A stretch of DNA of 63,524 nt, filler included, from Stramenopiles sp. TOSAG23-3 (taxonomy: Eukaryota): assembly GCA_900128585.1 (NCBI GenBank). It is 6 parts of 6 records of this genome, joined end to end, with 100 filler letters (N's around TTAATTAATTAA, not from the genome) between each part and the next. Parts side by side here need not be neighbours in the genome. Positions count along the whole stretch, not along the records: positions 27,517 to 54,756 come from LT642263.1; 5 more parts are not named here. One strand, written 5' to 3'. Shown in pieces: positions 27,517 through 61,434 of this stretch (positions within the stretch are counted from its first letter, which is position 1; every line of letters begins with the position of its first letter). Below the pieces are notes generated by a model. The model was not told the origin of the DNA and did not search any database. It was given only the letters and a program-made list of their open reading frames with translations. Made by a program: the position numbers and the translations under genes.

Positions 27517-27517
27517 T

Positions 27518-27661
27518 AATTCAGAGGCAGAGTTGGTAGAATCATTTGAAGAATCTGATGATGATGATGGAATGAAAGGAAATGATCGTAAGTTGGGTTT
27601 TCAAGGTGCATTAATGACTTCTGGTAGTTTTACTATGATGGCTTCGTCTGGTTTGGCTTAA
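27518..27661 (+). CDS. 3' end of an unknown gene (truncated by contig start)
   Basis: Open frame from the contig edge: NSEAELVESFEESDDDDGMKGNDRKLGFQGALMTSGSFTMMASSGLA*, followed by AT-rich DNA. Confidence 0.5.
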   Translation, partial: NSEAELVESFEESDDDDGMKGNDRKLGFQGALMTSGSFTMMASSGLA

Positions 27662-30572: not shown

Positions 30573-30846
30573 TAGCCCAGCAAATTATTTAAGTTATATG
30601 AGACACAAAAAACAACACTTTGTACAACTGGGCAAAAAACGGTGAAGCATGTCGAAATTCAGGTACACCTTCAGGAGTTTTTGTTGGACATAATGGACTA
30701 GTTAATGTCCATTAATAACACGCAGGATAGAAATCGTGGATAAATAAGAGTACTGAGAGAAGCATAAACATTTTAATATAACGAGACTGATTATAATATT
30801 CAGATATTAAAAGTCTAAAATATGATTTACTGGACATTAAAATTTG

Positions 30847-30956
30847 AAATACCTAAATAACAGCCATTATTTGTTGTGTCATGAATTGCTTAGAAATAAA
30901 TTCGCAATTTTTAAATACCTAAATAACAGCTATTTTGTTTTTAACATGAATGCTTT
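30847..30956. repeat. Degenerate tandem duplication, 66-bp period
   Basis: AAATACCTAAATAACAGC at 30847 and 30913, each followed by similar TATTT...CATGAAT(T)GCTT. Confidence 0.7.
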
Positions 30957-31271
30957 CCGTGCGATGCGGTAGGACTTGTTTTCATACTTCTTTCCATGCA
31001 ATACGAATTTGCTTTTACCAATTTGCTTTTCTATTAAATCAAATGCATAATATCATAAATACTTCGGAGCTAACAATGCGGCACACCGCCGCGCAATACG
31101 ATCCAGCGAAAGACTTTCGCCTTTGTTACCACTGTGGACTAATGTAAACCCCACCAAGAGCTTCGTCTGCGATTTCTCTCGTGCTGTGATATCAATTTTT
31201 GCCTCGCGTAAATTATACTTTAAAACTTCTAAAAAGTGAAATTTATATGTGCTGGGAACAATGCATGCATA

Positions 31272-34200
31272 TCAAAAATGTTCGTGTTGCAATTCGTACG
31301 GCCAACGAAGAAATCCTTTTCGCGGTCTTTGCGCTTTAATGGGGTGTTGCGGTGATGAACCCGATCTAGGAGAATGCTTTGTTGAAGTGCTTTTATTTTT
31401 GTCTGCTGCTAACTTTTTATTTGAAATTTCCAAAAGATTTTGTGACCATAACAGCTTCTCCTGTTTCACACCATTATTATTTAAACGCACAGTTTTGCTC
31501 ACCAGAGCCTCTACTTTATCTAGTAAAATACGAGGACTGTCAACTTGCTGAAAGTATAATCGCTCTATTTCGCGGTTAAATGTTTCGGGAACAAGGCCGT
31601 CTTGTGGCCCGGGGCGCAATTCGTCTTGAAATGATGGTAAATACTTGCCGATGTTATCTTTGCCATCTTGGGCACTTACTTTCTGGGCGCCGAACTTTTT
31701 GTTTGCGTTTTCAACGTCCTCGTCAGACTCTACACTTCTTGTTGCAAATGTTTTCTGCAGCGATTGTGTCCTTCGTATCCCCTTCAAACCCCATATACCC
31801 AGGTATTGGCCTGACTTGAAAATCAAGATTTGAACGAAGGTACAAACAATTAGCATACCAAGTATTAGAATTAAACCCATTGGGAAGTCATCGAATGGAT
31901 AATATCGCGGTAGTTCGTCTAAACTTGAATACAACATAAACAGAGCATACACTGTTATGATCTGCCCAAGAGTTACGATTGAAACTAGAAAATAAAACTG
32001 CTCTGAAAAGCACATTTGGTGAATCTTCAAGAATGAACTCTGCTCTGCGCGAAATTGATGTGCTTTCGGTTCATTCTCATCGCCCCATTCTGGGTCAACG
32101 TCTCTGAAATTTTCATCCAGTATCCATCTCTTCTTTCTCCCATAAAATTTGTTTGTCATATCCTTTAAATAATGATGAATTTTCATTGCAAAAGCAAATT
32201 CTAAAATATTTTCAACGAATGCGTCAACAATAACCTGAAATACAAAAATTACCACTCCAAAAAATATTGTAATGAGCAAATCTTTTTGACCATACATGGA
32301 TTCTACTTTCAAAAAATCAGAAAACATAATCACTAAAAGAGCAACAGGTATAGTAAACATTTGCGAGACAGTTGCCGTTGAATTCAAATACTGATGCTGA
32401 ATAATTTTGGTCAATTTTTTAAGATCATTAGGTTCCGCTTTCTTTTTGTCTTCTGCGTCATCCCGCTCCTCCTCCACTGCCCATAAACTCTGTAATTTTT
32501 TAATAATAGCAGCATATTTTTTAAAATGTTCTTCCAGCTTCGGCATAATTGCTTGTGCTAGGGGAGACAATAATTGAGTACCAGACGCAAACACTACCAG
32601 CATAATGTAATTTATCATAAATTGCGTAAACGCTACAGTACCCATGGACATTGTCTTGATGATTGTTTCCTGGCACATCCTGTACGGTGCAGTTGAAAGT
32701 CTATCCGGTATTGCCTGGTCCAGATAAGTCAGCAAACCTGCACCCGATACTTTCATTATTAACGAATACAAGGACACGTCTGCTTTGTAAAAAGATCTAT
32801 TGAGAGAAGATAAATAAAGCGTTAGAGAGTTAAAGGGAAAGGGGAGGGAAAACGTGGTTAACGGGGCTAGAAATTTTATTAGCAACTACTTACGTTCGCG
32901 AAATCATTATCATCAAAGTCTGAAAAAAGATGAAGCCTATAGTATGCAGCAATACCTGACTTCTTCTCCACAAATTCTTTTTTGTCACACTATTTTTTTC
33001 TTTGGGCTCTAGTGGGTTTGTTGCATTTGCAGCTTTTATAACAATTATAACCCCCAGCAAAGTGTACGACAGACCCATTCGTCCTTGTTGGGTGGTTTTT
33101 ATCACCATTTCGGAACGTTCACCAAAGTAGTAGACATTGCCGTCTAAAGAATCTGTTAATAGAGGCCCCAAATAATCTTTATGCAATATCATTTGAACAA
33201 TAAAAACTATGAGAAATGTGGGAAGAAATGCATAACCAAACCCTAAAATAGCAGGCCCACCAATTAATGTTATCCCGCTAAGAATTTCCATCTGGGGGTG
33301 TGGGATTACAGAATTAAAACGCTTCGATTTCAGCAGTGCCCACCAAATAGAAAAAAACATCATGGTTATAAGAATCCCAACAACAAACGAAATAAGTACA
33401 TACAGCGGCATCGGGAGGCTAAAGTTATCTAAAAGGCCCATGTAATCCAAATGTCTAAATGTTGTTCTAAATGTGTACTCTAGATGCCGTTGTCTCTCCA
33501 GGTTTGTTCTGGCTGAGGTGTATGCTGCAGAACTCCTGTAGTCAGAGAAATATATTGTTGCTTTCGCAATTTGTTTCCTATCTTCCAATTCTTGCCAAAA
33601 TTCGACGAGCATATGAACAAGTTTCGGGTAAGATCGTGGACCTTCATTTTCTACGGGCTCCGCTACAACGACAGTGCCTGTTCTAATTACTTCCTCGTTA
33701 ATATTCACTTTTGCTTTCATCGGCGAAACGGGAACAGCGTGGTACAGACGATACCGATCTAGTTTTTCGTTTTCAAACTTAATGAGTCGATTTACTTCTT
33801 CGCTCTGTTTTTTCTCGTTGATAGCCGTACCCATAGCTTTTAGCCACCCACCAAATTCGTAGCTTTTCATGGGTTCTCTAGACAAGAAAAAAAGGAATTC
33901 GGGAAAATTGCCTTCAAACCAGTAAGCCCGTGACGCGTCACCAGTTGTGATATCTTCCTCGTAACGGCAATGTAACCGGACATCACAATAATCGGTTAAT
34001 TTCTCCGAAGAAATCAAATCGAATTGGGATGTGGTGGTTGTTTCGTTAGGTGAACGGAATATGCACTGTTCAGAATTTTGAAACAATTTCCAGAGAGGCA
34101 CGTGGCTATCGTAACCAGCACAATTGGATACGTATGGCATGTATGGAAGTGTCACATGACTTAGGCCGCCGGTCCAAAACCCACTCGCAGTCCTCTTTAT

Positions 34201-37200
34201 GTCATCTGGTAACCTGGTCGTGCCCCTTGACACGGGATCATCTGGGCCAAGCTGAAATTCCGATGCTGCAACGTCTAAGTTGATATCATACCCCCTTATT
34301 GATTGGTCGTGTTGTAACGATTTCATCAAGGCCCATTCTCTGGTGTTTTTTGCAGAGTTTAAAATTGATTTTTTCGAACCTTTGTTAACGTAAACAATAC
34401 CATCAATTTCCTTTTGCACCACTAAATCAGGCTTATATGGAGCAGCATCTTTCAGAATTAACGAGCCAAACAACACTTTATGCGGTCCCCTGGATAATTT
34501 GTGCTCATTCGGGGTTAATTCATCGGTGTAATCCCTTGCGTACATTGTAGCAGCACTGTTTAGTGGCTCAGATTCATGCACATAATGGTTGTGTAAATTC
34601 AGGGGCAGTGACCACGTAAATATTCCCGAGTTGTATATCGCAATAAAGCTCTCGTAAATAGTATCGCCAGAAAGCATCGGTACTTGTGGTTGTTCCACCA
34701 CCCAACGCAATGAATTTGAGAACAAAGGAAAAGCATTGCTGTAGTGCCTCCCGTTTAGTACTTCAATTTCTATCAAAATCGTGCAATTACGTCGAGCCAA
34801 TGCTGTCAGATGTATTAACCCCGTTGATGCAAGTTGTTGACGAACCTCCGATGTAAGCCCAAGTTTAGTGCTTCCACCCACTGTGGAAACTTGTCGAGCC
34901 GTTTGAGGAAGGCCGTAACGCTTTACAATATTACCCTGCAGTGGCCCCTTATCATTTGCGCAGCTCCTCGTGTTTGTGGTTGTTCCAACCTTCAGAACAC
35001 GGCACGGCCTCCCGATATCAACGCCCACCGGGGGAATTTCGAATTTACTGCCATCATCTGTAAACATAACGCCAAGCTTTTCACGAGACTTGAAGTGTTC
35101 ATTTTTAATATTTTTACACCACGACAAACACACATCTCGACCTCTTTTTGTTTGCTCAAGACGGTAATCAAACGGGGTCTTAATTCGAATATCGCTGCTC
35201 ATTTCATCGTTACATCTATCCGTGTAGAAGTTGCCACCAGTGCCCCCACAACATACACCATCTGCTTCACAATGTGAATTTAAATCTTCAGATGCCATTA
35301 ACTCTAAGAACTCTATATTCGATAACATGCTATCGAGCCCTGCATATGTATCGAAGCGGGTTTTCTGCGCTGGATAGTCAAAACCGGGTAAATTGTTTTT
35401 CCTGACTTCTTCAAACGACAACTGGTTGTCTTTGTTCTCGTCAAACTCGGCTTTCATGTTTGCCCAATTGTTCCACGGGGACTGCTGCCATTGCATCTGG
35501 CGAACAGTCCTCACTTTTCGCTGTTTGATTTCACTGCCCATGTAACCTAGAGACGTATAACAAGAATCAGCCGTAGTCGTCGTGCACCCGACAGGATTTT
35601 TAGCATTCTCTGGGTGCAATAATTTATCGATCACGCCGTTATCCTCCGTCCGGCCTCCAAAAGGGTCCAATTCTGAATCAAAACGGCACTGATTTGGTCC
35701 TAGAGTTGGCACTGGCACTCCGATAAGGCACCAAGAACAGTCATAGTCATACTGGCACCGTTCCCCAAACACTCGACGCTCCTTCTTTCCACCATAATCC
35801 GAGTCTAAGGCTTTCATTGCGGAATCCCACTGCTCTGTCCAGCGTCGATATGGGAAACTCATATATTCGTCTTGTATATTATGAAAATCAATTATTTCTT
35901 GATCGAATTTGGATGCTTTGTCTTCCGTGCCCGCACCTATACTAGCTTCATATTGGTAAAACGGACTGTACCGGGAGTCTTCACCTAATGCTATTAAAGT
36001 ATCATAATCGATTACCGGAAAGTCGTCCACGTATAATGCTATTCTGTAGTCATTATCGTACACAAGACCACTGGCAATAGCTTTTGAAAAATTAAATCTA
36101 AAGTGAGCAACTTGCAAGGTTTGTATTGCGTAAGAAAATGTTGTGTCTTCAGGGTTCAGTATAGGCAAATTGTCCCAATTCGTTGGAGAGGAAATGTCTC
36201 TGGTGCTGGATAGTTGCTTGTAAGCATATGGGTCTAACTCAAAAGAAACATGGGTCGTGGGGTTAATAGAAACTACACGGTCACCATGAGTCCTTAACCA
36301 GTTCTTATCCAATATACAATCATGAACAGACCCTTTCTGAGACTCTGATTTAGTGCCTGGGGGGCAAGGCACACCAACCCACGACCCGGAGGGGCAATAA
36401 TGGTTCTTAGGGCAACTACTCTGTTCTCTTTGGGTTTTTAGCGTTCCCAGGGGGCAAATAAAATTCTCGGGGCAAACACCAGATTCCCGGGCCTGCTTTT
36501 GAGTAGACTGCTCGTATACGGATCGAATGGTCGAAACTTTTTCTTCTTTCTCAAATTGGACGCTTTTGAAGGTCTCTTGCATACAATTATCTGCCACCTC
36601 TTTGAAGAAGGCAGACCCAGGCTTATCGCCCGGTTGTGTGCCGAACAATATCCCAGAATATGTGCCTAAACCGCAGTAAAAGCCAGCAGGGCATTTCATA
36701 GAATCAAGGTACTCACTCGTACCTGAACTGCAGAGGAACCCTTCCTGGCATTCTTTACAATGAGAAATTTGCCCACTTGGCTGCACTCGTTTAAAGCAAT
36801 CAGTTTGTCCCAAAAGATCGCAAAAAAATCCCGATGGTGTCGACATACATGTGGACGAAGAGTTTGAGCCCGTGAAGGGTAAATACGTTCCTTGTGGGCA
36901 GTCTTGACACCGGACTTCTTTCCCAGTCATCGCATAGGATAATTCCATGAAGCGCCCCTTTTGGCATGTCTTACAGCCGCTTTGGCGCGTTTCGTCATTA
37001 TAGGTACCAGATGGGCAAGTTTGACACTCTTCCGACCCAGTAATTTTGCTGAATCTCCCAGTTGGGCAATCAACAGGAAATGATGCGCCGGCTTTCGGTA
37101 CATGAGTTCCAGGAATCGCAGGGGTTGGATCTGTCGAACCTCTAGGGCAGAACGTTCCAGCAGGGCACTGACCACTTCCTTTTTGTGTTGCGCAGCCAAA

Positions 37201-40200
37201 TTCAATGTATGCTTCGCCTGTGAAAGGGTTGGTTGACTCTGTGCGACATAATCCCACCCCGGGTTGACAGTAATACCCAGGCGTGCACAACTGGGGCCAG
37301 CCCGCCTCTCCCTGTTTGGCACCGTTGAACTCGTTGGTAGAAACTCCCGGGAGACAAAAGGTACCATTTGGGCAAGGCATTGGTCCTTTAAATACAAAAC
37401 TGTGTTCTTCTGCTGTTGCAACTATCCCCAATGCCTCTCCGCTGTAACCAGCATGATGATTTGGATCAACGCCTTGACCAGGAAACCTAGTGTTTGTCCC
37501 TTCTTCACAGTAATGCCCTTTCAGACACTGTATTTGCTCGCCTGAAAACGCCGGAGCGCATTGGGGACAAGAGGGGTTGCACGTCCAGCATATTTCACTA
37601 TGCCGGCAAATGCTGTCAGCTTCAATCCACTGGCACAAAAATGTTTGCCGACATTGGCCTACGTTTAAATCTTTGCAAACAACGGTGGAGCTCGTATACG
37701 CCGGTCCTAAACAAGTCCGTGAATCATCTTCCGCGTCAATAGTACTTTTTCTGACCGGGTATATTTCACAAACATCTAATTGACATATGAATCCAGCCTT
37801 GCACGGAATCCCGTCATACATGCGCGAGTTGGGACACTTCTTCCCGGGTGGACATTTTCTGCATTCTTTTAGCCCAAGGGTAGGACCGTACGTTCCAGGT
37901 GTGCACGTTTGGTCCAATGAACGGCCTTCTGTCGTAGATGCACGGCCCCGTCGCGCATAAGGGGCACTGATAATATCGGCGCCTGTAGTAATATTTTTCC
38001 CAGATGTTATGCCAAGAGCATATGAGCAGCGGATAATTTGGTCAATCGGTATTCCAGGAGTAAGCAAAGAGGGTGGTTTTGTGCCCTGGCAACCAACAGC
38101 AGATTCGTTACGAATACATCGTGGACACTCCAGCGGGCAATTATCAGTACTATCGGTATTCGGGCTGCACAACTTGATGCAATCTAGATGGTTCATTGGG
38201 CACTCGGGGCTGGCGTCCATTTCAACGGAGCAGCTCTTTTCCCCACGATACCAGTCATGGGTTTGGCACATCTTATTCTGTCCGCATTTGAAAAGGGAGC
38301 AAGTTTGGATTTCTGGTAAATCCCGGCCTACGTAGGCGTACAATGTTTGGTCAAACGTTTCAAATATTGATTTTGGAGATGGGCAAAATTGCCCTTTCGG
38401 GCATTTACCGCTTCCTGCCGGAGACGTTGCGCCATATCCACAAAAAAAATTTTGTAAGCATGGCTGTGGGTAACTATATTGTGTAAAATCGACTGAAACC
38501 TTCAGATTTACTTTTTCCGATGGTTCTGTTACAGGAGGTGGAAATGTTCTCGGGGCTTTGTCGTCGTCGGCATTATATATACTTGTACAAAACTGCCTTG
38601 TTGGCTCTGTTATATAAGAATAGTCTGATCCACTGACCTGTATTTTGTACTGTTTTGTTACCGAGTCGCAGTTTTTTCCATCCAGTGAATATTGACCCTC
38701 TTGGACTCCCCACGTGCTAACATCTCCCTGGGTTGAAGCAAACACCGCAAAATATTGACCTTCGTAAGACGCACGAAAAAACTGTACTATCTTACCGCCT
38801 ACCTTGATTTCCTTCAGATTATTAACGGGGAGATCTTCTTCCCATTTATCGTTTGCTCCACCAACTATACATTCCGTGGGGCGCGGACAATTTTCGTACG
38901 CGTTCCACTTCGCTACACCGGCAAGACAAAACACACCTGGGGGGCACTGAATTGGACCACCGCATTTCTCAGATTCACACTGAAAATACAAATGTCGTTC
39001 ACTCCGTAGTTCTAGGAACGCAAAGTCAACCCCATGATTAAAAGGGTCGTAAAATGCTATTTTGTCTTGTACATCGGGATAATCTTCCTTATTAACCATG
39101 GTAATTTTCGGGAAATATTTCGTGCCATCAGAGATTGCACAGCCGCAAAACTGTTCGGGGCAAACTAAAGAAATATTAAATATTCGAGCCGGTTGATAGA
39201 AATACATAACAATCTTATTTGACAAAAGGTTTCCCCCATAATTGATTGCACTAGCAATGATGCACTTCTCATTCGGCAACTGAATACTTTTGGAAACATC
39301 TTCCCCGGCAAAGATTCTATCAGACAAGGGATTGGAATAATGCAATGTGATATGTTGCATGAAGTTGAGATTATCCCCAAGAAAAAGTGTAAAGTAGGCA
39401 TCGGAAAATCCTGCGCCTGAGAATGCACTCTCCAAACTCACCGTCTTTGCCTCCCTCGTCAGTATTCCATGGGATGATATGTGGGGAACATTTTTTGACA
39501 TAATGGAGAAGTTCATTTGTTTCAGGCATTTATTTCTAGCGCGTTGCTGGGAAGTGCAATGGATTGCAGACAAAGGTCTAGCAGGACGACCGTTTCGAAA
39601 TTTTAGCACAAGAGTGCGATTTTTTTGAGTTGCATTCCCCTGCCATACTGTATCCCGCACTAAGTAGGGGAAGCTTTCCTTCAAATGTTGGTATAACTTG
39701 GTTGACGAATTGCTTAGTGCACAGGGGCTAATGCAAGAATTGCTCTGGAGTCCTGGGTACAATAAACGAATATCATCCATCTCACCGCAATCAAAATTAA
39801 TAGGAATAGTCTGCTCTAGCACGAGCTTGATAATTCTCTTTCCCGCATCAAATAGCTTTGCGTTTAAAGCGTGGACTAAACACGTACCACCAAACCCACA
39901 TGATATGACGGATCCTTCGGCGGCAGTATCAATTTGATAAATTCTGTCGCCTGCTTTGAAACTATGGTACCCCAGGAAAGAAATATTTTGAATAGACGTT
40001 ACTGTGGATATGAAAGCTCGCCCAGCCTCATCTACTAATTTAATAGGTGTCGTAGGCGGCAATCCTGTTGACCGGTTATATAGCTTTACAACCGTGACAT
40101 TTCCGTCTCTGTTTGAGATATTTTCAACGTTTTTGCTCTCCCACCTTTGATTACAATCTGCATGTACCTGCAAGTGAAAACTTTTATTCCTTTGTATCTC

Positions 40201-43200
40201 TATGGTGTGACTCGTTCCGGTGGAAAGGGGGGGAAGAGATAAATTACTCCAATATCCGGATTTTACCACAGTCTCGTTATCATTGCAACTAGAAAGACGG
40301 ATATCGTGCGAAAATGGTGGCATTGCAGAGCCTATTAGTATTCGTTCCCAATTTAACATTGACTTCTCTATAGCAACAATAGCATAAAATTTTGTTCTTC
40401 CTAATTTAAAAATATTTGTTGACTGTAACAAGCGACTGGTCATACACTCTGTTGACCTCTGCTGGGAGTCTACAAACTTGAATGACCCAGTCGTGGTACT
40501 TATGTTGCTTTCGATCATATACGGCGCAGATGACACACATTTTGATTGAAGAACATCTACTTTGTCATCTTTATTCAAGGCGTCTATCATCTCAGAAAAC
40601 TCCGTAATTCGTGGGTCGCAATTCGGAGGTTGTGAAAAAGAAAATGTTGTAACAGGTAGCACGTTAGGGGGATCGATTATATCAATGTTAATTATTCCAT
40701 CCGGCTCTTGCACAGTCACGTCTACATTACTAATATTAGGCAACGATAGCAGGTGATTTTTTAACTCTTCAATATCTATGTTCGAGCAAGATATTTTAAA
40801 GCACGCATGTTCCCCTGTCGGCGTAACGTAATGGCTAATGGAAGATTTATATCCAAACCGCATGTATGGTTTTGATGCGTCACACTGAAAAATTAGACGC
40901 GTTTCGCCGATCACTATTGGAGGGGCGTGTGTTGCTTTCTTTTGCGTAACCCTTAATTCAATATGGTAAAGTGCATGCATAGAGTCAAAAAAACGCCTAA
41001 TGCTACCAAATGTTCCTTCCATATTTTGCATAGACTCAGCCTGCACTGTGACGTTGTGGATATTGGGGAAAACATCTTTCAACGCATTTGAAATGTTCAT
41101 TTGTCCAGCCCCTGTTCCTAAATTTACATAATCAATGCATGGCGATATATGTTCCTTTTGCCGCAAATAAAACTGCCCCGTGTTGCCCACAAATAAATTG
41201 CCGTCAGTATGAAACTTAATTTGATCGGTCCAAAAAGAAATTTTGTGAACATTTTTGTGCTTTGCAATTGGGCTGGTTGACGAAAATATATCAGGGGCAG
41301 TGACCACATGGACATCAAATTTTGTATAACTCGAAGCGGCATAAGATTTAAGCACGTATCCCTCAGCGCTTACATTATCCGCCCCTGGTTGCACTAAGAA
41401 ATCATCAACTTCCAAAAAAATAGCATGACTGAATACAACACTTTGAACAATTGATATCGAGTACTCGAACGCACTATTAGGCACAGTGGAGTTATACGAG
41501 TAGAATTTTATTCTGTTGCCAGTTGCAACGATGCTCTTGTAATGGGGCGAATTTCGACGTAGCTCGTTCTGTTTTAAAGTTGCAATACTCCTTTGTCCAC
41601 TTAACCTGTCTACCGTTTTTACTTCAAAATTATGTGTGCACGATGCGAGGCTAGACAAATATAGAATTTCACCTGTTTGCACAGGTTGCCAAAAATTCTC
41701 GGGTAAAATGCTGCTGTTGTTCCTGTTAACAGAGTCAGGTGTGTTCGAGACGCTGTTTCGTCGGAAAAACTGCAAATTTCCTGAATTGTTGCTTAATGGG
41801 CGAACGACTAATTCTCCAGGTAGGTATGAATTTCTAGATTCTTGAAATTCTCCTTGAAATAACACATTTTCAGACAACAGGGCCCAGAGTCTTCTTTTGT
41901 CGACAAAATATTTGTTGTCCCCTAGAGCAAATCGTGATCGTACAGGTGGAGAGGCAATAGAAATAAGTCGGCTATGGCCATCATCATCAGACACATTAAG
42001 AGGCCACCCTGTTCGAAACGTTTTTCCTTTACTCACAACGTGAACAGTATAACTGCATGTATTATTCACACAAGCTATCGCGTTCACAAATCCCTCCGCA
42101 CTTGTTGCAGGCTGAAAAATACGAGCGTTGGTCTTTATCCAGTTGGAGTTCAAGATATCAAAGCGAAGCACATGAGTCAATTCAAACGTATTCAACATAT
42201 TGTAGTTGGCAAAAAACTCTCCTTCAACCATAACTTTGCACGAGCCTTCGCTCTTTTCTATACTGAATGCATCCTGGTCGAACAAAGTCCCTCTACCGTC
42301 GATCTGAAGTACTGATAATTCACCCTCCTCAAAAGCAATTTGTGTAATTTTGTCTCCTGGCAGACAGCAGTCACGGTGATCTTGGCATTCTTTGGCGTGT
42401 GTGCCAGAGACGCTCGCCCCCACAAAGTTAGCGTTGACGCACATGCGAGGAAGTATACACGCTGGTTTGAAACAAGCAAAAGAATGAAACGGAAATTTAC
42501 AGCATTCGAATTTATTCAATTTTTCTTCTGAGCATTCTTGAACACAGCAGTCTCCCATGCTGCCGCTCGATTCTAACTCGTTAGCATTGCAAGACAAGTC
42601 TGCGTTTCGTTCGCAACAAAACGGCAACTGCCCTTTACAATCTGAGTCCAATCTACAAGATTTCCCGTGGGTTATGCCCCCTCGGCAAGTGCCTTGACGA
42701 TCCTGGGCCAACATAGTCATTAAATCCATAGGCTCGCATGTGTGTGACCTGCACGGCGTAAGAGTTTTTCTGCCTTGGGGACAGTAGTGACCAGCACTAC
42801 ATGGAGTTCGTGGGAATGTCAGGTTTTCGGCGTTGCAAATGTACCCCGGGGGGCATGTGACAGTTGAAACAAGCCCAGTAATTTCACTATTATCAGTAAA
42901 TACTGCAGGACAAATAGACCCAATTGGACACCCTTTGCAGTCTTCCCTTCGGGGCACATCATTATATGTGCCGGGTTTACACCTTACACCCTTAATTTGC
43001 CCCAGTGATGGGCATCGATTCCCTGCATCGCACGCAACCCTTCCGAGTTTTGCAGGCTGAAGTGATTCGTATGCAGGACAGTAGAATCCTTTTGGGCACG
43101 CCCCCTGCCCCTCTGGCAACGAGGAGCCCCGTTCACATTCGAAGCCGGAATAACACACATTTACGGCCCCATTAGTAAAACTTCGTGCCCCCGCATCTTC

Positions 43201-46200
43201 CCTGGAAGAAGTGGTTCGCATACGACAATAAAATTTGTCTGTACACGAACAGGGACGTTTCGGACTTACCTGAAAAGCATTGGATTCACAATATTGTGGA
43301 AGTGTAAAATCAAGGTTATTTTGGCGAAATTTTTTTACCTGATCACGTATACTGAGACCAACTTTTGCCGTCCCTGTACCATCAACATCAACATAATGAT
43401 GCTCAAGTTCTCCGGAAGGGTCTAACCAACCTTCCCATGGGTGTGTCTCGTATGACTCTTGAAAAATCCCATTCATCAATCCAATAATTTTGTTTTTCGA
43501 CATTTCTGACGCAGTCCCAACCGGGCAATAGTGCCCCGGCGGGCAGAAGTTTGTTGCCAACCTAGACCCAACTGCCAGCTGCAGTGATGGTACTGAGATT
43601 ATTGAATCAAAAAAACGCGATTCGCCTATTTGTACATCTGGATCACAGATATATCCTGCTGGGCAATCTTTTGGGGTTTGCATTCCAGCAGTTTCACATA
43701 TTTTCCCCTGGGGGCATGCATTGCATAAATACTGCCCTTGCAATTCTTGGCTGGTTCCAGGCGGGCATTTTACAACCCTACCCAAGGTAAATGGCTCGAT
43801 CATCACGTTGAAATATATCCCATCTTCAACATCTGGGGCTGAAAATGTTACTGAATTTTCGCTGAAAGACAAAACTCGCAATACCTTCCCCTGCAGGTAA
43901 GACTCTGTACGGCTTGCAACTTGTATTTGCATACTCATACCTACCGATATACCCAGGGAACCGCCGTTATTTACCATTGTTGCGGTCGCAATGCCACCCT
44001 GCGTGTAAAGCCGAGGGCTTTGAATTTCTTTCACCGGGCTATCGACCGCACCATCCGCTGAACACATACTTCCTTTCCGGCATTCACGTTGTGCGTGCGC
44101 AATTGCATAGTCGGGAACGTTTTTCAGTTTGCAATTAAAGCCCGCAGGGCACGAGCGAGCGTATAACACTTTGTTTGAAGTTTCCGCCTCCTGATGCTCT
44201 CGCACACGCCCATACCACGACGGAAGAAAAAATTCGGTTCGGTTTACCTCCTGCAGAGGGTTCCACTCAAACTTTGGTGAATATGGAGACGAGCCACAAA
44301 CAGAGTATAGTTTCTTATCTAGCTGACCAATAAACGCAGGCGTCGAAGATCCTCCAAAAACGCATCGAAAGTCTTTCTTTTGAAACATTAAAACGCCTCT
44401 TTTTAGGTACTTTTTGGATTTCCATGTCCGTTGGGTATGGATTACAAACAGACTAGAATTATTTGTGGCGGACTGTCCAATTTTGTAGACGATCCCATTC
44501 TGCTTAAAAGCAACGTAAGAAAACTTTCCTCCTTGATATAAACCTGGGATAAGATCAAAAGACGCAAGTGTAAGCTCGTCTCTAGCGTCATTTATATCCT
44601 CGATTACATGACGTCCCTTTAGCGTTTGAACAGATATACTGCCCCTGAAAAGCACCGGAAGTGCTACACAATTTACAAGGGTCGATTTGTAGACATTGGA
44701 TGTAACAATCAAGTACTTATTTAGGCCTTCCACTACAGAATTTGGTACTCCAAGATCAGAAGGCAGAGTTACGATCGGTTTACTGGCTGACGCATTTCCT
44801 GACCTACAGGCGCCATTTACAATGGTGAATTGTGTCTCAGTAACCTCTGTTTTGTCATCCTCACAGTTCCCCCTTTTCCCAATACCTTCAAAAATTAGTG
44901 GAAACGGCCGGGGAGGTTGTACAAACTGTATGAGCAGAGTTGTCCTATTGTTTTCCTCTGAACGATTAACGTTAACCTTAGAAATGTGCTTAGAATGCTC
45001 CAATATTGCTTTAATCGAACTGTCAGATGCTGTTGTATTTGTGCATTGCAAAAATTCTTTGTCGTACGATAAACGATACCACAATACCACATTACTTGGG
45101 AAACTAATGGTCTGGTTTTCGGTGCCATGAGCAAACGAACCCTGTCCATCATACTTCACTTTGACTGTTTTGGTCTGGTCGACTGGACCTTTGCCAAATA
45201 TTACATCGTGGTGTGAATGTCCTCGATGAGACAAGCGAACATTGTCAAAATCTTCAAACTGGAAAATATTCAGAGAGTACTGGTCCAGGCATTTGCTCAC
45301 TTTTTTTATTTTATCACCTACGATAAGCTTGTACTGTGATAAACCTTTTTGAGGAAGCACGCTAGTGACCCGCACCAGATTTTTAACAGTATCGCCTCTG
45401 ATTGCGCGCAAATGTACGGTCTTAGAAGCAGCGAGGCAAAAGCTATGCGAAGGTTGAATGAAGTCTACATGAAAGGGAGACCAACCTATCGGAAAATAAA
45501 GTTCGAGAGAAAAAAATCCAGTCGTAACGTTTCCAAGATGTGTAACTCTCGATAACCCGTGTTGTGATAGAAATCCCATGACGGATTCTTTGATAGCTTG
45601 CATGTTCTGATCAATACTTATGCAACGACTTAAAGTGCCATTGAATTTAATTCGAAAAGCGTCAGGTTGTACAGGTTGCACGTTGCTTGAAAAATATACA
45701 GTCACTTTAGGCGAAGACGAAAACGCCAATTCAACCTGGTCCTTTGCGTTGAAGCGCCCTTCCAGTGGCACAACACTTATACTGGTGCCTTGTTGGTCGG
45801 ACAGGACCAATCCGACTGCAAGAGAGTTAAATTGGCGCAAAATTGAACCACGTTTAAGATACACATTCTTCATTCCTGATAGAATCACAGCACTAGAATG
45901 CATGAAACCGACTTGGTCAGAGCAATTGGTCTCATCCAAACAATGCTCCCACGTTGTTGAGAGGTGTGAGGCATTTTGCAACCTAAACCTCTGCCTTAGT
46001 TTCAAGTATTTCTTATTCGATTTAAATGACACTTGACACAATGTAACTGGAAGTTTCAAGTTAGAGCACGTAAGCTTTAACCGTTTCTCAACAAACAGGG
46101 ATTTCAGCAACACGCCTTTAACGGACAATACCGGGTGTTTGTATTGTAGTACTGTCATTTTCTTATCGCAATACGGCTGCTGCACACAGGTCAAAAGGAT

Positions 46201-49200
46201 AGTGCTTCCAATTGGGGCTGACAAGTTCGCCTTAGTTTGCAGGGTTAGTTTGAGCGATTCTTCCTGCAGAGCATACGTCATAACATGTATTGGTTGGATG
46301 TTGTCACCCGTGTTCATATTTATTTCTGCGCCTTTCTCAAGGTTTGCTTCAGGAGCGCTTAACTTTATCCGCGCTTCTGTAGCTAACTCCGTTGCTACTT
46401 GCAAGGCTTCGGTGTGCTCCCCGTAATCCTTTGCTCTTACATACAGCCTATAATTCAAAATTAATACAGCAAATATGCTATGGTTTTCTAATGTGTAGTT
46501 TCTAGGAATGTACTCCACACGTTTCGTTACGGTAACACAACTCGATGTGAAATTACTGATCGTGTATACATTGTTCAGTACAGAGAGTGTAGAATTTTGT
46601 AGTGAAATGGTTTTTCCAACCGCTAAAACGGACACGTTTAATTTACGTGAAAAGAACATAATTTCCCTTGCATTCACATTTACTTTGAATACCATATATC
46701 GTTCTAATCTTGTCACTGTTGCAGTATAGGATTGATTGAGATCTCCACCAAAAAGCTTAATACGGTCCCCAATCTTAGGCATCCGAACCCGTATTCCAGG
46801 AAATCGAACAATTACCAAAATTTGAGAATGCGAAAGCTCGTGAAGACTTACATTTGTGGAAATAATGGCGATATTATTTACATTAACGGCGTCGGAAAAT
46901 GCATGAATGTATACAGGTGCGTTAGCGCCATAGACACTTTCTAGTGCTTCTCCATGTGCACTTACATGAATAACTCCAGTACAATGGTGGTCCAAATTCA
47001 CGTTGCAAGGTGTATCGAGGAGCGATACATTCTGAATGAAAACTTTCTCATTCCAAGCGGGGAGGTGCACGTACCCACAAAAGCTTCCATCACAGTTCAA
47101 AATTACCGTTTGGTGCCCGCCAAATTGAAATTCTATGCTGTCCGTACGCTTTAGCAACCCCTCAGAAGAATTCAATGCTGTAATAACACCATAAATACCA
47201 TTGACTGTTTCATTCTTGATCCCAACAAATTGAATAACAGCACCAGGACTTGGAAGTGGCGCTTGCGATGAAACTTCCACGACTACTACCCCGTTACCGT
47301 TTTGGACATACATGCTGAATATTGTTCCCAAATACGAGGGATTTAATACGCGCATAATCCCTCCGTATGCGAGACCCGAGTCTCCATAGTATCCTGGTAT
47401 CAGAAAAATACCGTTGCACAAGACAGTTTTACCCGTCAAATCTAACGTTGCTAGAGTTCGTGTATCGCCTCCTGAGAACTTGGCGACAAAACGAGTATTC
47501 TCAAATACTTTCCCGCCCCTGTACAGTCCATATGTATTGGGACTCTCTACCGATATTTTAAAGTGCATGCCACTGACCAGATCAACGCCTACCTTTAAAT
47601 CGACGTTGTGAGACCATACCGATAAGGCACAATTAAGGAAGGTACCGTTGTGTTCAGATACACGCATTTCAGGACTGACTATGCCACTAAATTGGTTTGT
47701 ACTTGGTACTTCCGACACTATCACCAGCAGCAAACTCGTGTAAGGGTATTTTGCATTTTCCATTTTTGAAGCGCCTAGTTCTATTTTCACCTGGTCATCA
47801 GGCACCAGAGCCATGGGTCGGTCCAACTCGCATGTTAAAGTGGTACTAGATAAATTGACATGAACACAAGTTGCAGTAATAGCCTTTAAAAGGATAAACT
47901 CGTGGGCACCAGTATTCTCCCCTTCTACAGCGATTTTGTGCTGACCTTCCAGGAGAAGAGACAACACACCAACCACAGTATCTGGCGCCTCCGTTTTGAA
48001 AGCAACAACTGCATGCTTCCCGACATGTAATCCATTTCCAAGTGTTACATGAGGTCTTCCCTCTTTTATTTCAACGCTCTCAACTGAGTCTCGGCACTCT
48101 TGCGCGCATATGTATGTGATTTGATGAACGCCATTTAGGAATCGCTCAGCATCTGTTATGGTGATGTAATCGTTTACCTTCGAACTTATATGGGAATCGA
48201 TGTAAATAGTGGCGATTGAATCAGTAAGCAAAATTTCGGAAATTGTTGCACGAAATAATTTTTCGACAGAGAAGCTATTGTCGAAAATATCAACATTCAT
48301 CGTTGATTCGTGAAATGGGCATTTTATGCCTGGGCTGGAAAGTACTACCAAATAATTTCCATTGCTCCAATTTTTGTAAGATAGGAATGTGGCATTGCAA
48401 TGAAATATGTCCTCATTCATGGTAAAAATTGTTTGAACATGACTTACAGAATCTGGGGCACTCAAAATTTCAACAAACTGTTTATCTTTTGCTGGTTTTA
48501 AGAAGCTGGGAGTATCTGTTACTGCGAATGCATGATCCCTGAGAATATAAAATTGCTTAATCCGAGTAACCTGCGATCTACTGTAAAAGTTGGTGTTTGG
48601 TCGTTTTGCTGGATCCCTAATTTTCAGCGCGGTATAAATCGCGGTGCCAGATGGACCGAATGAATTCGTAAAAATGGTCGGCGAGGATATCGAATAAAAA
48701 CGCACAGTTCCCAGTGCCGAATTTGATGACTCTGCTTTTTTTGGGCACAATGAAGTGGCGTTGCCGGTGCTCGATATGTGTTGACATGACAGTCTGACAA
48801 TAGAATTACTTAACCGATGTTGAGTTTCAAAAGCAATATGCAGGTGCCCCATCATTATTTCTGTAGATACTTCAATTGAAACGATTTCATCCGAGTGAGT
48901 GAGACCTGACAGATCTCTCCGCAATATATTTGATATATCTTCCGCAGTTGAATATTCTTCAAACGAATACGATTTGTTCCAGATGTAATGTGGATCATTG
49001 GAACCAATTTGATAGCGAAGAGAAAATGTGTTGTTCGTGTAAAACTCTTGAGTATAAGTTTCCGTTATGCGTGGATTATGGACAAAAAACTGTTCTAACA
49101 GTTCTATGTAGTTACCCCCAGACTCAGAATTGCAACTGACGGCACTACTGAGTTCATTATCCATTGTTACTACCGTTATCGAAGACAAATTATTCACGGC

Positions 49201-52200
49201 AGCGATTGTGTATGGCCCAATAGTTTGTCGATGAGACCCACACATTCCTACAAAGAACGAATCGCCGACCTGGGGGTTAATGGTGGTAATAAACGCCCCA
49301 ATTAATTTTTCTTCATCTCTACTCGAGAAGGAACTACCGAGTAGAACAAAGTCAACCTCTGACAAAATCAGTACTTCAAATCCTCTTGCCGAATTTGTGT
49401 ACACACCAGACGAATTTCCGATATAGATTATATTCCCATCTTCAAATTTGTGCTTAAATTTCGTTCGCAAAACTAGAGGGCTAAAATTTACTACCTTCAA
49501 TACTTCGTGGTAACTGTAGTATATCAGAACACGTCTCGTAAAATTCATAACCCTAGTTAAAGTCCAGGAGTCTGCAACGGTCACGTTTAAAACGCCCTCG
49601 TCTTCGGAAAGCAACAGGATAGAAGTTGAATTGATTGCGTGAATAGCGAAGTCACGACCATTTAAATGAGGAGCACCAGGAGCGTTTTCCAGTCTCACCA
49701 CATCGCCGGCAGTCAAATTGTGTGCAGACACAAAGATGACAGTGGGAGGATTGCCCCAGATGAGGCTCAAAATTTCCATCTCATTTCTCTGTAAAGTCGT
49801 AAGAATATTTTTTACTTTTGCTTTCACTTTCCCAACAATATTGAAATTTTCATTAATTTGAAAACGTTTTTGCATTATTTTTACAAACATTGTTTGTCCC
49901 ATTTGCAACGTTGGAGCCCGAAAAGATTTAGACAAACTAATACGGATAAAATCTTTGAAGAAATGAACATTTTCGACATCAAATAGACCACCCGCAGATT
50001 GAAGACTTGGAGTTACTGAGAAAGGGACAGGGGTGCTCCATCCAGGATTTTGAACAACAAACCCAGCACCAAATTTCCCATGGGAGGTTCCAGGCGGGGT
50101 TTCTAAGTACACACAATTATCGGAAGGACCGAACGACAAAATACGAAATATTCGATTAACCCGAAAGTCTACAGAACTTGAAACATAAAAATAAGAACCA
50201 TTCGCTAGCTTAACTCTCTCGAAATTGGAAGAAGTGAATTCTAGGACAGTAACATTTGTCTGTACAGACATAGCGGAGAAAGGAGTTGATGATTCTAAAC
50301 TGTGCTGCAGCATAATTGATAAATCAAGTTTTTTGGATCCAATGGAAATTCTGCTAAATCGACTCCTTGTAAATTTACACAACAAATTACTATTACTGTG
50401 CCAATACGAGCTGTCAGACAGCAAAACAATGCGCATTTCCCCAACTTTCATATCACGATTAGATGATACTTTACCTGTAGAAAAGAAAAAGTCTACAAAG
50501 GATCCCACCCAAATAATTGTGTGAAACCCTGTAAAAGCAGGATCATTACCAGCGTATAGTTCTAGTTTTGATCTTGGTCCCAACACACCAACAGACACGA
50601 CTCCTCCATACATGGTGACATTAGAAATACTCTCTCTTGATTCAAATTCGATCTGAAACACATTCAAATTTTGAACTTTCTGAACTCGAAATGCCCCGTG
50701 TATCCTGTAATCTAAAATTTCAAGATATACCAAGTCCTTCTCGAACAGCACTATTGGCATTTTTGTGGTTACAACAGCAGAATTGGTAAGTTGGAAAACC
50801 TCGACGGAGAATATTTCCACCGATACAATCGGGGTTGCTGTCTGGAAACTCACTTTTAGCATCTTTATATGCCCACCAAAGAAACCAGAGGAATATTTTC
50901 GATCCCCTTCCTTAACAACTAGTGAGGATTCAGAGAGGACCTCTTGAACTTCGTGATAGGATGTTGCGCTCCCTGGTACATATAGCATCCCTGTAGTATA
51001 GGTACCATCTGGCATGAAAGGCTCGCTTTGCAGCAAAACACTCATCTTCCGCACCAGAAGAACTTTATACGTGCCTCGGAGACTAGATGAGTTCAGATCC
51101 ACTTCCAAATCAAGAAATTTTGAAGTCTCAGCAACATTTAAACTGCGCAGTAATGTTACATTGATCAATCCACCTGATAAAAATACAACTTTGGATTTCA
51201 CACCTTCGTAAAAAGTGGTAACTTCAAGAAAATCCCCTGGTAAAAATGTTTTTACCGCGGCATGATGAAGCTTAATCAAATTGCTCCCCGGAACTTTAAA
51301 CCCATTCTTTAATGTTGCCAAAACAGATGTAATACTAGATATTTGCATCCCCTCTTCGGTTGCAGACGTCATTCTGCAAATTGTGTTTCCGTTTATGTTG
51401 AGTTTTGTGTTACCCACAACAGCTTTGCATGCATTTAACGACGGTTGAACAGGCATTAAATCCACGGAACTATACAAAAACAACTTATTTCCTGTTACAT
51501 TTTGCACTCTGTACATCCCATTAATTTCCTTTTCGTGGCATGCAATTATCTCCATTCGATCGCCGATATGTACGTTTAGAGGCGTCGCAGTGCTCAATGA
51601 AATAATTTTACAAGAACGAAAGAGAGGTGATGCACCCGAAGAGTTAGAACAAATTACCTCGATTTGTTCGACGAGACTGCTCCGTCCGAAAGTCACATTG
51701 ACAAAGGTGTCCTCAGAAAGAGGTGAGCTATCGGGTTGAATTGACACGATTTCTGGTTTGTTCATGATAGACAATGTCACCCTCTGCCCGGAGTGCAGAG
51801 AGCTGTGACGACCCGACCAAAGATCACCTAAGTGTCCGCCGCCTTCGATTCCGTCATTTATAACGTACACAAGATATTTTGCTCCAGCTACCAGAGACCT
51901 TGAAATCGTACAAACTAAATTTTCAGCCGATTTGTAAATTGCAGGCAGTACAATTACATTATCATGCATCCCACTATATTTGGACTCCAAAACGCAATGG
52001 CAATTTGGAGAAAATCCACTGCCGGAAACAGAAAAATCGGTGCGAGTCCCAGAGTATAGAAAGGATGGTGAAATACTGTGCACAGTCGGAATGAGAAACA
52101 CTCTATATTTTTGAGAGCATAATAAATTTATGCACACTACCACAAAACTTTTTGTTTCTCCAACAGTTTTTGTACTTTTGTCCAAAATGCACGTAAGTTT

Positions 52201-54756
52201 AAATAATTGGGTCACGAGTGTGACGTTTCGGCATCTGCTCCCTCCAACAAATACGTGCAAAAAGTGTGCATTTGTGCCAAAATTTTCGCCGTATATTGTG
52301 AAATTTCTCTCCCCTGCAGTATACACAAACTGGTCTGTATAAAATTGACCCTGATCGACGGGCACAAGGCCCGCCTCTACTTTGCGAATAATGGGCGCTT
52401 GGTATTTCAAAACTGACCCCGAATGCAAATTCGTGTTTCCGTTCAGTGGATATAGAGTTTTGTGTTTAAAGTAAGCTGATGAAACGGATATCTTTAGGCC
52501 TTCACCCGAGCGCGGCGGCAGAGAGCACGAAACGGCGCATACATCAGTGCTCAGCCAGTTATAACCGATAGGCTGCGTGAGAGTTGTTATGACATAACCA
52601 TGCCCATTATTTTCTAGATCACCCGGAAATGCCTCTTTAATTAGGAAAGTAAAAGGATTTACAACTTCATACACTTCGTATAGCTTTCCTACTTTTTTGA
52701 AATTTGTTTCGTCTAGAAATGATATTTGAGCTCCGTCCTCTAGTGCAAGTGGAGATCCTCGGGTAGTCACCAATGTGGCATTCTTGTAGGGAATCATGGT
52801 CTTAATGGCCCTATATTTATCACCCAAATTACGATTTTTTGGTAGTTTCTTGAGAAGGCATCCGAGGCTTGTTTGCAGATCTTTGCATTCCCGCAGCCCA
52901 ATTTGAACGGACATAGTTACGATAATGGAGCCTGTGTTATACATGGTGTACGCAGGCGATGAAGGAACCAGTACTGTCACCACGGTAGGGTCAGCCGTCA
53001 CATTAGTTACGGTATGATCACCGTCTAGTTGTTTTTTACCCGAATCATATATCCTAATTTTTGAACCATTCTCAATCTTAAGCGGATTTATCAAGGTCAG
53101 CTTGGCCCGCCCATTTCTCACAGATATGGTTTGAATCCCACTTCTCTTTCCAGGTCGATATACCCACCCACTTTTGGCTTTTAGTTTTGACGGGTCGTTC
53201 TCATTTTTAAAGTGCTTCATATAAACTGGCCACAACCTTCCACCGATAATAGGAGTGTCACAATCTGACGCAGAGCAAATACGCGATTGTAATAAGATTG
53301 TAGAACTGTCAAACACTTCACTAATAACATACGTTCCATTTAGTTCCATGTAAACCGAATGTTGAATTTTCACTACGTCACCAGCGGTAAACGGCAGCTC
53401 ATTCCCTGCAATTGTAATTTGGGTCTGCATCCCGCTGGCGTCTAACTGAATTATGGAAATATAGAACGCTGGAATATTAAAAGCGAAGACTTTGTCTGAA
53501 ACTTTCTTCGAAACTACCCATACATCATTTAAAAATTCCATGGGGCAATCAGAAACTGATATTGAATCTCCTTCATCGACAATGTCACCCGACACAAAAA
53601 ACCTCGCCTCTGCTACGGCTGAAAAAAAGAAAATTGTTACATTCACAATTTTAACTTTTTCTCCCATATGAAAGGGGGATCCCAAAAGCACTAGCGTATC
53701 ACCGCCTTGAGGGTTACATACTATGTCGTTTTGCGCCGGACTAACTGGATCCAAACGCCCGTGCAAACAATTTAATGTATGGGGAAGGTACTGGTGTGAC
53801 GGAACGACGGCTTGGCCTTTTGAAAACTTACTTATTCGATGCATTCCATTAATATATGGCAAATGTACAAACCTTTTGATTTGCAGTGTGCAGCCAGACA
53901 GCAGTGTTGGTATTATTGTATTTTCAGAGGCAGTAATAAGCACCGTATTATTTGTAAAATTGTTGTTGTTGCGAACGACAGCATATCGACCGTTGAAAGA
54001 ATAGTTATTGCAATATTTGATTTTCACGAAATCTGTATCGTTTATTGGCGTGGAAAAGCTCATTGCAGTATATAAAATAATTTTCTGACCACCGGTAAAT
54101 TCTGCATGCATAATTTTTGTTTCCAGGTCTGCACATCCAGAAAGCTCGGCGTGCATACCCCTGTAAAAGCGCCGTTTTCCTTTAATTTTCAAGCTCATGT
54201 ATTTACCAGTGGAAGCGACATGTATGTTCCCGTCCATATTCAACAATGGGATTCCAACTTCAAGTGAACCTCCCCATATCGTCTCTTCAAACGGTGCCGC
54301 CACATTCAGCGTTAAAATGGAAAATGCGGTCACTGTCGCGCAAACTTGGGTAGAGTCCCGATTGAAGCAGCGAAACGGATTTGCAGAAGCACTAAAAGCA
54401 TAGAATGCGGCATTATGCGTGAATGTGCAGATTGCAGTAGAAAATGAAATTGAGTTTTTAACAGCTCCACTATGACGAAATGTGATATTTATGCAGCTGT
54501 CTCGCGGTGCGGATACTTGTGCAACGACATACACCCCATTTGCATATTCACTACTACAATTACTCAATGTAAAATAGTCTTCCAGTGTTATTTTGATATC
54601 CCCGCATGCAAACACAGTTCCGTTATCAGCGTCTATGTTGACAATTGTGCCTACTTGTTTGAGTAGTCTAGATACATGCATAACGGTGGTCTGTACTCCA
54701 TTTGACACCATAATTTTATCGCCTTCTTGCAGCATGTACGACGATACTCCCAAGTG
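31272..54756 (-). CDS. Giant (at least 7,795 aa) multi-domain, multi-pass membrane protein, CRMP-like; exons 54756-32894 and 32796-31272; 5' truncated
   Basis: The 7287-aa ORF joins the 537-aa ORF in frame through a GT-AG intron (...ISRT|SFYKAD...). Contains GDxVxI...LNGxYxV beta repeats, IPT/TIG domains, many CPxGxYCPxG repeats, EF-hand-like DENKDNQLSFEE and about 9-11 hydrophobic segments at the C-terminus. Confidence 0.9.
32797..32893 (-). other. Spliceosomal intron (97 nt) in the giant gene
   Basis: Donor AC|GTAAGT, branch CTCTAAC (32827-32821), pyrimidine tract, acceptor CAATAG|; removal fuses the two ORFs in frame. Confidence 0.92.
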
Positions 54757-54856
54757 NNNNNNNNNNNNNNNNNNNNNNNNNNNNNNNNNNNNNNNNNNNN
54801 TTAATTAATTAANNNNNNNNNNNNNNNNNNNNNNNNNNNNNNNNNNNNNNNNNNNN
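54757..54856. other. Artificial contig linker
   Basis: Same N-TTAATTAATTAA-N spacer. Confidence 0.98.
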
Positions 54857-59242: not shown

Positions 59243-59246
59243 CGAT

Positions 59247-61433: not shown

Positions 61434-61434
61434 A

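Follow-up and report, generated by a model that had tools for sequence, protein, structure and literature searches.

Cysteine-repeat modular proteins (CRMPs) count among the closest described systems to the gene considered here. CRMPs possess several cysteine-rich domains and nine transmembrane domains, and their 'conserved core' consists of two EGF-like domains together with the transmembrane domains (PMC9815656). The family is termed apicomplexan-specific, many diverse copies are described in Chromera, and heterodimerisation is predicted between the transmembrane part of CRMPA and that of CRMPB; a passing remark adds that Dictyostelium Q86I19 and two more proteins of this genus show a similar nine-transmembrane part in their AlphaFold models (PMC9815656). 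The role proposed for CRMPs is to sense host contact and set off rhoptry discharge, their N-terminus being out and their C-terminus in (PMC9670195). In the same source, TgCRMPa and PfCRMP1 are described as resembling G-protein-coupled receptors (GPCRs) according to PANTHER, and the Tetrahymena proteins TtCRMP1/2 as having five predicted transmembrane helices and a GAIN-like HHpred match (PMC9670195). Here we describe a giant gene in a 63,524-nucleotide stretch of DNA (the window) from Stramenopiles sp. TOSAG23-3 (GCA_900128585.1), located on the contig LT642263.1. By its architecture, the product of this gene appears to be a new, very large and divergent CRMP-type modular multi-pass receptor.

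The gene lies on the minus strand, as do all of its features below, and is made of two exons separated by one intron; the joined frame, which meets its only stop at the end, encodes at least 7,795 residues. Exon 1 (32894..54756, 21.9 kb) encodes residues 1-7287 and two nucleotides of codon 7288, and exon 2 (31272..32796, 1.5 kb) encodes residues 7288-7795 followed by the stop codon (31274..31272). The corresponding stop-to-stop open reading frames (ORFs) span 32890..54804 (7,304 codons, entering an artificial linker) and 31272..32885 (537 codons). Between the exons is a 97-nt GT-AG intron (32797..32893) of sequence GTAAGT...TCAATAG, which falls within the membrane core; with slashes at the exon boundaries, the junction reads ...CGCGAAC/GTAAGT...TCTCAATAG/ATC. 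Exon lengths, intron and protein length are as given in an earlier reading of the DNA (the sequence-only reading), which also described the frame as open at the contig edge. This edge, where an artificial linker (54757..54856) adjoins the gene, cuts the 5′ end of exon 1, so that the N-terminus and any signal peptide are missing.

Contigs from independent samples show that this gene is intact and transcribed. Two checks proposed with the sequence-only reading, RNA across the intron and a search for a chimeric join, were made over 31100..51099 with aligned contigs of one DNA run (X14) and of the metatranscriptome runs X10, X9 and X12, each from a different study. The 97 nt of the intron are skipped exactly by one contig in each of the three RNA runs (CT..AC on the plus strand) and by no contig of the DNA run. 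The same splice junction is present in P0001, a JGI gene model from another sample that is 982 residues long and 96% identical. DNA and RNA contigs tile the aligned interval at an identity of at least 99%, the RNA contigs of X12 cover 30 of its 30 bins, RNA and DNA are colinear across 32894..51099, and none of the four runs reported a second joint between 31100 and 51099. In addition, an independent study provides a single RNA contig of 8,278 nt that links the tail, across the spliced intron and the membrane core, with the second cysteine array. The intron, the long exon (to at least 51099) and the physical link between core and ectodomain are supported by these independent samples. At position 33940, in juxtamembrane coding sequence, the window has an A and all four runs (three RNA, one DNA) have a G; the A of the window represents either a minority allele or an error of the assembly.

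The gene is also widespread. Its 4-kb 3′ part was recovered almost verbatim from 20 runs of 24 listed, which belong to 13 studies, with at least half of the sampled words found in each, and all listed runs carrying it are marine or seawater metagenomes or metatranscriptomes. Four very small runs of an organism coded A are a possible source. The host of the gene is a cosmopolitan marine protist. Extending the 5′ end through the first 300 residues yielded 443 pattern matches in metagenome contigs, none of which was confirmed.

The conserved end of the protein consists of a juxtamembrane domain, a membrane core and a tail. The juxtamembrane domain (residues 6866-7110, 33427..34161) has four near-invariant cysteines and carries the signature LPYxPxxSNCxGxDS...DxC...CxYEE...WFE. 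Its AlphaFold2 (AF2) model has a predicted local distance difference test score (pLDDT) of 81.2 and a predicted template-modelling score (pTM) of 0.80. The strings by which the sequence-only reading had marked this region and the core (LPYMPYVSNCAGYDSH, CRYEE, YWFE and QMCFSEQFYF) are all present in the translation. The membrane core (residues 7116-7620, 31800..33411) is delimited by hydropathy, AF2 modelling and conservation. Over residues 7115-7614, hydropathy resolves 8 strong and 2-3 weaker membrane segments, in agreement with the 9-11 transmembrane segments counted earlier. Conserved motifs of the core are R.GR.G, DxFxxNxxE, GWK..Y and CFSxQxYF, one glycine and one arginine are invariant, and its conserved or near-invariant residues include G7172, R7226, D7479, E7487 and Q7554 (the last in CFSxQxYF), which correspond to G362, R416, D669, E677 and Q744 of P0001. 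The long cytosolic loops of the core are likewise conserved among relatives. The conservation of polar residues within helices speaks for a role beyond that of a passive anchor. The core is followed by a basic, partly helical C-terminal tail of 175 residues (31275..31799), which has low pLDDT past an amphipathic helix and which the positive-inside rule would place in the cytosol.

We modelled the 982 residues of P0001 with AF2 from a 46-row alignment of relatives, which gave a mean pLDDT of 74.3 and a pTM of 0.76, with residues 56-845 confidently predicted. The model pairs a juxtamembrane domain of mixed alpha/beta structure with 11 long helices. Helices 5, 6 and 7 (485-506, 510-529 and 534-581) are separated by turns of 3-4 residues, so they must cross the membrane all together or not at all. 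The resulting 9-pass and 11-pass readings alike would put the N-terminus out and the tail in, and both fit the loop charges. An extracellular ectodomain is further supported by P0008, a complete relative of 6,372 residues, since it opens with the signal-peptide-like MGIKRWWLVLLVAATLA (judged by eye).

The conserved end of the protein defines a family. Residues 6600-7287, searched exhaustively with phmmer in a set of 1.84 billion representatives, have 299 relatives at E<=1e-3, 86 of them at E<=1e-10; the details of relatives that follow rest on the best 150 of the 299 matches. When the last 1,000 residues were mapped onto the fetched proteins, a colinear C-terminal module of about 780 residues was recovered in relatives ranging from 0.8 to 7.5 thousand residues. 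Thirty clusters were looked up, and the relatives with names among them come from Guillardia theta (XP_005821996, 'IPT/TIG domain-containing protein'), Andalucia godoyi (ANDGO_00679), Tetrahymena thermophila (the tandem trio EAR82336-8, which has orthologues in two other Tetrahymena species), Cantina marsupialis (two clusters) and Fabomonas tropica. One more is a transcriptome entry, and the remainder are unnamed or 'hypothetical protein'. The named homologues and the marine metagenome proteins P0008 and P0002 share both the juxtamembrane domain and the core with the window protein (E 1e-8 to 1e-60). The window protein has the features that mark membership, namely the four-cysteine juxtamembrane signature, a colinear motif-bearing core, and ephrin-receptor-like blocks N-terminal of the module. 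TIG domains, ephrin-like repeats and the module recur in this order in P0176 from Guillardia and in P0058 and P0049; P0176 has five TIG stretches (Pfam TIG 8.4e-53) and an Ephrin_rec_like match of 26.3 bits. This family is large, unnamed and spread across eukaryotes, and it is unstudied outside alveolates. The sequence-only reading had ranked the locus as its best candidate for an undescribed system, which overstates the case given 299 relatives, several with TIG domains, ephrin-like repeats and the module, and all uncharacterised.

In a FastTree phylogeny of 73 modules, the window protein groups with P0002, P0008, P0007 and P0009 in a five-row clade with a local support of 100, supports throughout being FastTree local supports and long branches being flagged. 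The named taxa are spread over other clades, with several paralogues within single organisms, and the best identity outside the window protein's own species is 33%. The membrane-count difference between the Tetrahymena trio and TtCRMP1/2 suggests that EAR82336-8 need not be TtCRMP1/2. We found no paper naming these accessions, and the main text of PMC9670195 gives no accession map. Three further proteins, P0003, P0004 and P0005 (1,121-1,125 residues), are related to the core over its later two thirds alone (E 5e-7 to 6e-6). Each begins near the end of the first helix, has no ectodomain and ends in a coiled-coil-like tail of about 600 residues, which points either to truncated gene models or to a family branch without an ectodomain.

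Comparison of the ectodomain (residues 1-6850) with all fetched proteins by phmmer indicates where conservation ends. Four blocks align to relatives in the same order (3830-4000, 5790-6035, 6092-6245 and 6612-6745). The first two align to most relatives, the last two are conserved stalk blocks (6612-6745 lying at 34522..34923), and the longer stretches 3660-4111 and 5421-6045 align to the closest relatives only. Residues 1-3660 and 4112-5420 have no match among the fetched relatives. The constant part of the family therefore extends beyond the membrane into the cysteine arrays. It takes in cysteine-knotted, ephrin-receptor-like repeats, the two stalk blocks, the four-cysteine juxtamembrane domain and the core of 9-11 helices, and whatever is N-terminal of it varies from lineage to lineage. 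This block-wise pattern is best described as a conserved stalk and core that bear a lineage-specific N-terminal half and two lineage inserts, one between the cysteine arrays and one, containing an EF-hand-type loop, between the stalk blocks.

The ectodomain makes up 91% of the protein and is built of repeats and disulfide-rich modules. Its first 3,535 residues (44152..54756) form a beta-rich, lineage-specific region without a match in about 200 fetched relatives (E<=1e-3). Within the first 2,760 residues of this region, motif searches and a self-trained profile identify about 10 divergent repeats of about 80 residues with the signature GDxVxI...NGxYxV. Residues ~788-1050 (51607..52395) appear TIG-like but divergent, as judged from sub-threshold Pfam matches and a profile built from 62 fetched relatives and their 548 TIG domains. 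With this family-trained profile, residues 889-973 are a significant domain (i-Evalue 8.8e-6), and the flanking units are weak and not significant. Cysteine density peaks twice, at 44151..42367 and 39006..36337, which are the two arrays of the sequence-only reading. Array 1 (residues 3536-4130, 42367..44151), defined by cysteine density and motifs, aligns to relatives such as P0008 over residues 3660-4111, and array 2 (residues 5251-6140, 36337..39006) is ephrin-receptor-like by cysteine density, motifs and sub-threshold Pfam matches. All 16 CxxGx[YF] motifs of the protein fall inside these two arrays. Pfam Ephrin_rec_like (PF07699, GCC2_GCC3) matches four stretches near residue 5900 at 21.8 bits against a cutoff of 23.1, and the homologous blocks exceed the threshold in P0049 (33.0 bits) and P0176. 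The insert between the arrays (residues 4131-5250, 39007..42366) has no match over 4112-5420. It accounts for a spacing of about 1,300 residues between the cysteine blocks here versus about 117 in P0008, the closest full-length relative. The second insert carries the EF-hand-type loop DENKDNQLSFEE (residues 6439-6450, 35407..35442), a pattern match. A Pfam match of the window protein to TcdA1_RBD_3 (E 0.13) was treated as noise.

Set beside the CRMPs, proposed contact sensors on which malaria and Toxoplasma parasites depend for invasion, the window protein appears to fit their architectural definition point by point, a likeness at the level of architecture. Like TgCRMPA/B and Plasmodium CRMP1-4, as described in PMC9815656 and PMC9670195, it is very large and has a variable, presumably adhesive, ectodomain. 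As in CRMPs, cysteine repeats of the EGF-like or ephrin-receptor-like kind stand directly before a conserved multi-pass core, for which nine transmembrane domains are predicted in CRMPs and for which we find 8 strong and 2-3 weak hydrophobic segments, or 11 helices in the AF2 model. Also shared are a C-terminus that would be cytosolic here and a conserved core that takes in the last cysteine repeats along with the helices. Several features differ. Unlike CRMPs, the window protein has no Kringle, MAR or CLECT domain in Pfam; its cysteine repeats are divided between two separate arrays, and 3,660 residues at its N-terminus are unmatched. Its host is a marine and presumably free-living organism. 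Finally, in rhoptry discharge CRMPs work together with MIC15 and TSP1 as A/B heterodimers, which the window protein is not known to do. Adhesion GPCRs and polycystin-1 offer an analogy only, in that a giant modular ectodomain on a multi-pass core would turn contact or force into a signal, as also discussed in PMC9670195.

If the link to CRMPs is true, the parasite invasion sensor would be one branch of an ancient eukaryotic surface-receptor family, and this family would be open to study in free-living, tractable organisms. The window protein adds an RNA-verified, abundant open-ocean example of the CRMP-like build. In PMC9815656 CRMPs appear as contact sensors specific to apicomplexans; the family of the window protein, alike in build, is present in cryptophytes, jakobids, ciliates, stramenopiles and ancyromonads. 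The shared module merits a family model, and Pfam is without one.

We favour, as probable though far from settled, the interpretation that the gene encodes a giant cell-surface receptor or adhesin whose conserved core relays contact across the membrane. In this mechanism the N-terminus would lie outside the cell and the tail in the cytosol. The variable beta-rich region, with its TIG-like and FCCH-like repeats, would bind a surface or ligand, and the disulfide-rich repeats would act as a stiff stalk that holds this region outward. An event at the ectodomain would then be coupled to the core by the juxtamembrane domain, and the polar core, the conserved cytosolic loops and the tail would pass it inward, as proposed for apicomplexan CRMPs. 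The sequence-only reading went further and suggested a contact or prey sensor in a free-living flagellate, possibly coupled to extrusome discharge or ion flux, which is possible by analogy with CRMPs. Any such role would be lineage-specific, because the lifestyles of the relatives are very different.

Several observations weigh against the receptor interpretation or against parts of its anatomy. The module itself has no Pfam family in the pieces of the window protein or in 16 of 16 members scanned (E<=1) and, with P0001 as query, has no PDB match by sequence at E<=1. The CRMP name, proposed earlier for the locus, stands on none of the 30 relative clusters looked up, and the agreement in architecture is the part of that proposal that holds. 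Because the N-terminus is cut off, no signal peptide is visible in the giant gene itself. A prey-specific role is unlikely to be ancestral, since members span lifestyles as different as those of a phototrophic cryptophyte, a jakobid and ciliates. Other points concern single ectodomain elements, for which the evidence is weaker. A Pfam scan of the protein gave no domain above threshold, and the profile scan suggested with the sequence-only reading returned TIG, E1_FCCH and Ephrin_rec_like matches that are all sub-threshold. Pfam TIG (PF01833) reaches 19.4 bits over residues 813-865 against a cutoff of 20.9, so that of the IPT/TIG domains proposed earlier one stands, at 889-973, by the family-trained profile. 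For the E1_FCCH-like beta repeats, the roughly 10 units are recognised only by motif and by the self-trained profile, whose E-values are no evidence, and Pfam E1_FCCH scores 18.7 bits over residues 1677-1712 against a cutoff of 29.5. The EF-hand-like loops reduce to the one canonical loop, with no second loop and no Pfam EF-hand match, although the 12-residue DxNxDxxxxxxE loops of helix-loop-helix EF-hands usually come in pairs.

Other searches with the module or its parts produced nothing to build on. A family-alignment search among proteins of 3,769-5,000 residues scored nothing, and the ESM Atlas returned no usable match for P0001 and, for exon 2, TMEM117 alone at 0.76, below lead level. 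PDB rows found by profile were chance matches, the best (E 0.011) being a nicking endonuclease that matched the tail, and Pfam matches of scanned members to LapA_dom and DUF6560 (E 0.04-0.09) were treated as noise.

A rival to the relay interpretation, which we consider unlikely, is that the core is an OSCA/TMEM63/TMEM16-fold channel or lipid scramblase, with one extra N-terminal helix plus ten, and that the protein is a tethered conductance gated by contact or force instead of a receptor signalling by way of partners. Comparison of the transmembrane block with channel folds had been proposed with the sequence-only reading. In this comparison OSCA/TMEM63 alignments begin at the first helix of the model (residues 294-315 = chain residues 3-40) and TMEM16 alignments begin at the second (residue 338 = chain residue 151). 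The alignments are colinear, and their starting points match the OSCA-like layout of one extra helix and ten. The 11 helices of the AF2 model suit this layout as well, an 11-pass topology with the N-terminus out and the C-terminus in fits the loop charges, and D669, N674 and E677 of P0001 are located at the inner end of one helix. Set against these points, every Z score is below the tool's noise mark for helical bundles (~13), with rmsd values of 6.5-12 Å and identities of 5-12%, and many of the comparison rows are repeated entries of one protein. The query is itself a prediction from a 46-row alignment, over 982 residues rather than the core alone. Foldseek against the PDB returned nothing at E<=0.001 for the whole module, with template-modelling (TM) scores of ~0.1 and BetP transporters ranked first, and nothing at E<=0.001 for the juxtamembrane domain. 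Neither the window pieces nor any of the 16 members scanned at E<=1 has a Pfam Anoctamin, RSN1_7TM or TMC match. TMEM16, OSCA, TMEM63 and TMC proteins also differ in being without giant ectodomains and without any sequence-family signal to the window protein.

The resemblance of the core to TMEM16 and OSCA is weak but consistent, and we treat it as a lead and not as a finding. As a lead it supplies a definite mechanism, open to testing, by which cores of this kind could act. Were it true, the giant 'receptors' would be tethered conductances, either ion channels or lipid scramblases, that contact or a pull on the ectodomain would open, and there would be a direct physical route from surface touch through calcium entry or membrane remodelling to organelle discharge. 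That the core has an OSCA/TMEM63-type fold and that, if CRMPs belong to the family, as the architecture suggests, the invasion sensors of malaria parasites and Toxoplasma share this fold is a doubtful proposition. We found no paper joining CRMP, TMEM16 and Toxoplasma.

Other multi-pass folds were considered for the core. Meckelin (TMEM67, PDB 7FH1) combines a beta-rich domain with seven helices, versus 9-11 here; its fold scores do not rise above noise, Pfam gives no Meckelin match, and it is absent from the core matches. The fungal Flc/Pkd2 TRP-like family PF06011 has no match in 16 of 16 members (E<=1). An adhesion-GPCR GAIN/GPS domain was considered in view of the HHpred match of the TtCRMPs; no GAIN chain is among the juxtamembrane rows shown, and the HL before the first helix of the window protein is not conserved, the family consensus at this position being PL. 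No 7TM or GAIN match appears in the fold and family searches shown.

It is rather improbable, in our judgement, that the protein is a passive structural adhesin or cell-coat protein in which the multi-pass block is a strong anchor without signalling or transport. An ectodomain of repeats and disulfide-rich modules that takes up nine tenths of the chain would suit such a protein, the N-terminal 3,660 residues evolve too fast for any match, as is common in adhesins, and a neighbouring gene may also encode TIG-like repeats. One helix is enough for anchoring, however, and the core and juxtamembrane domain are the best conserved parts across the 299 relatives, with near-invariant charged and polar residues in or beside the helices and with long cytosolic loops that are conserved too. 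An assembly chimera or dead gene is highly improbable: the window consists of joined contigs and the gene does run into a joint, but this joint is a linker of artificial origin and no part of the contig that carries the gene, the 8,278-nt RNA contig runs from the tail to cysteine array 2, the DNA and RNA contigs tile 31100..51099 almost identically, and 7,795 codons are free of stops.

The window as a whole is a concatenation of at least 6 contigs with 5 identical artificial linkers between them, each made of 44 N, TTAATTAATTAA and 44 N (27417-27516, 54757-54856, 56950-57049, 59143-59242 and 61334-61433). The contig carrying the giant gene spans 27517..54756. A series of short, TIG-like ORF fragments on the plus strand occupies 29085-30572 (+), downstream of the giant gene and in convergent orientation; one of them matches Pfam TIG at E 0.0035 (17.7 bits, sub-threshold). 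These fragments probably belong to a multi-intron gene for another repeat-built surface protein.

The first contig (1-27416) carries genes of eukaryote type. On the minus strand, 10017-11078 encodes a K+ channel of the two-pore type that has a pair of EF-hands. The plus strand carries genes for a Rab GDI/REP-like protein (19639-21996), within a GC-rich stretch, and for a protein kinase (25191-26483), and zinc alcohol dehydrogenase and GDSL lipase genes are present as well. The same contig encodes an LpxK-like tetraacyldisaccharide-1-P 4'-kinase on its minus strand (3397-4572; Pfam 3.2e-45), an enzyme that is unusual in lineages other than bacteria and those with plastids. An Rfam scan of the window matched nothing. 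Three contigs of about 2.09 kb lie between the last four linkers (54857-56949, 57050-59142 and 59243-61333), in a region with a GC content of 0.43-0.51 in 2-kb bins, and a final piece (61434-63524) runs to the window end. That these contigs and the last piece come from the same organism as the giant gene is not a given. The final piece contains a 41-nt unit exactly duplicated in tandem (62834-62915).

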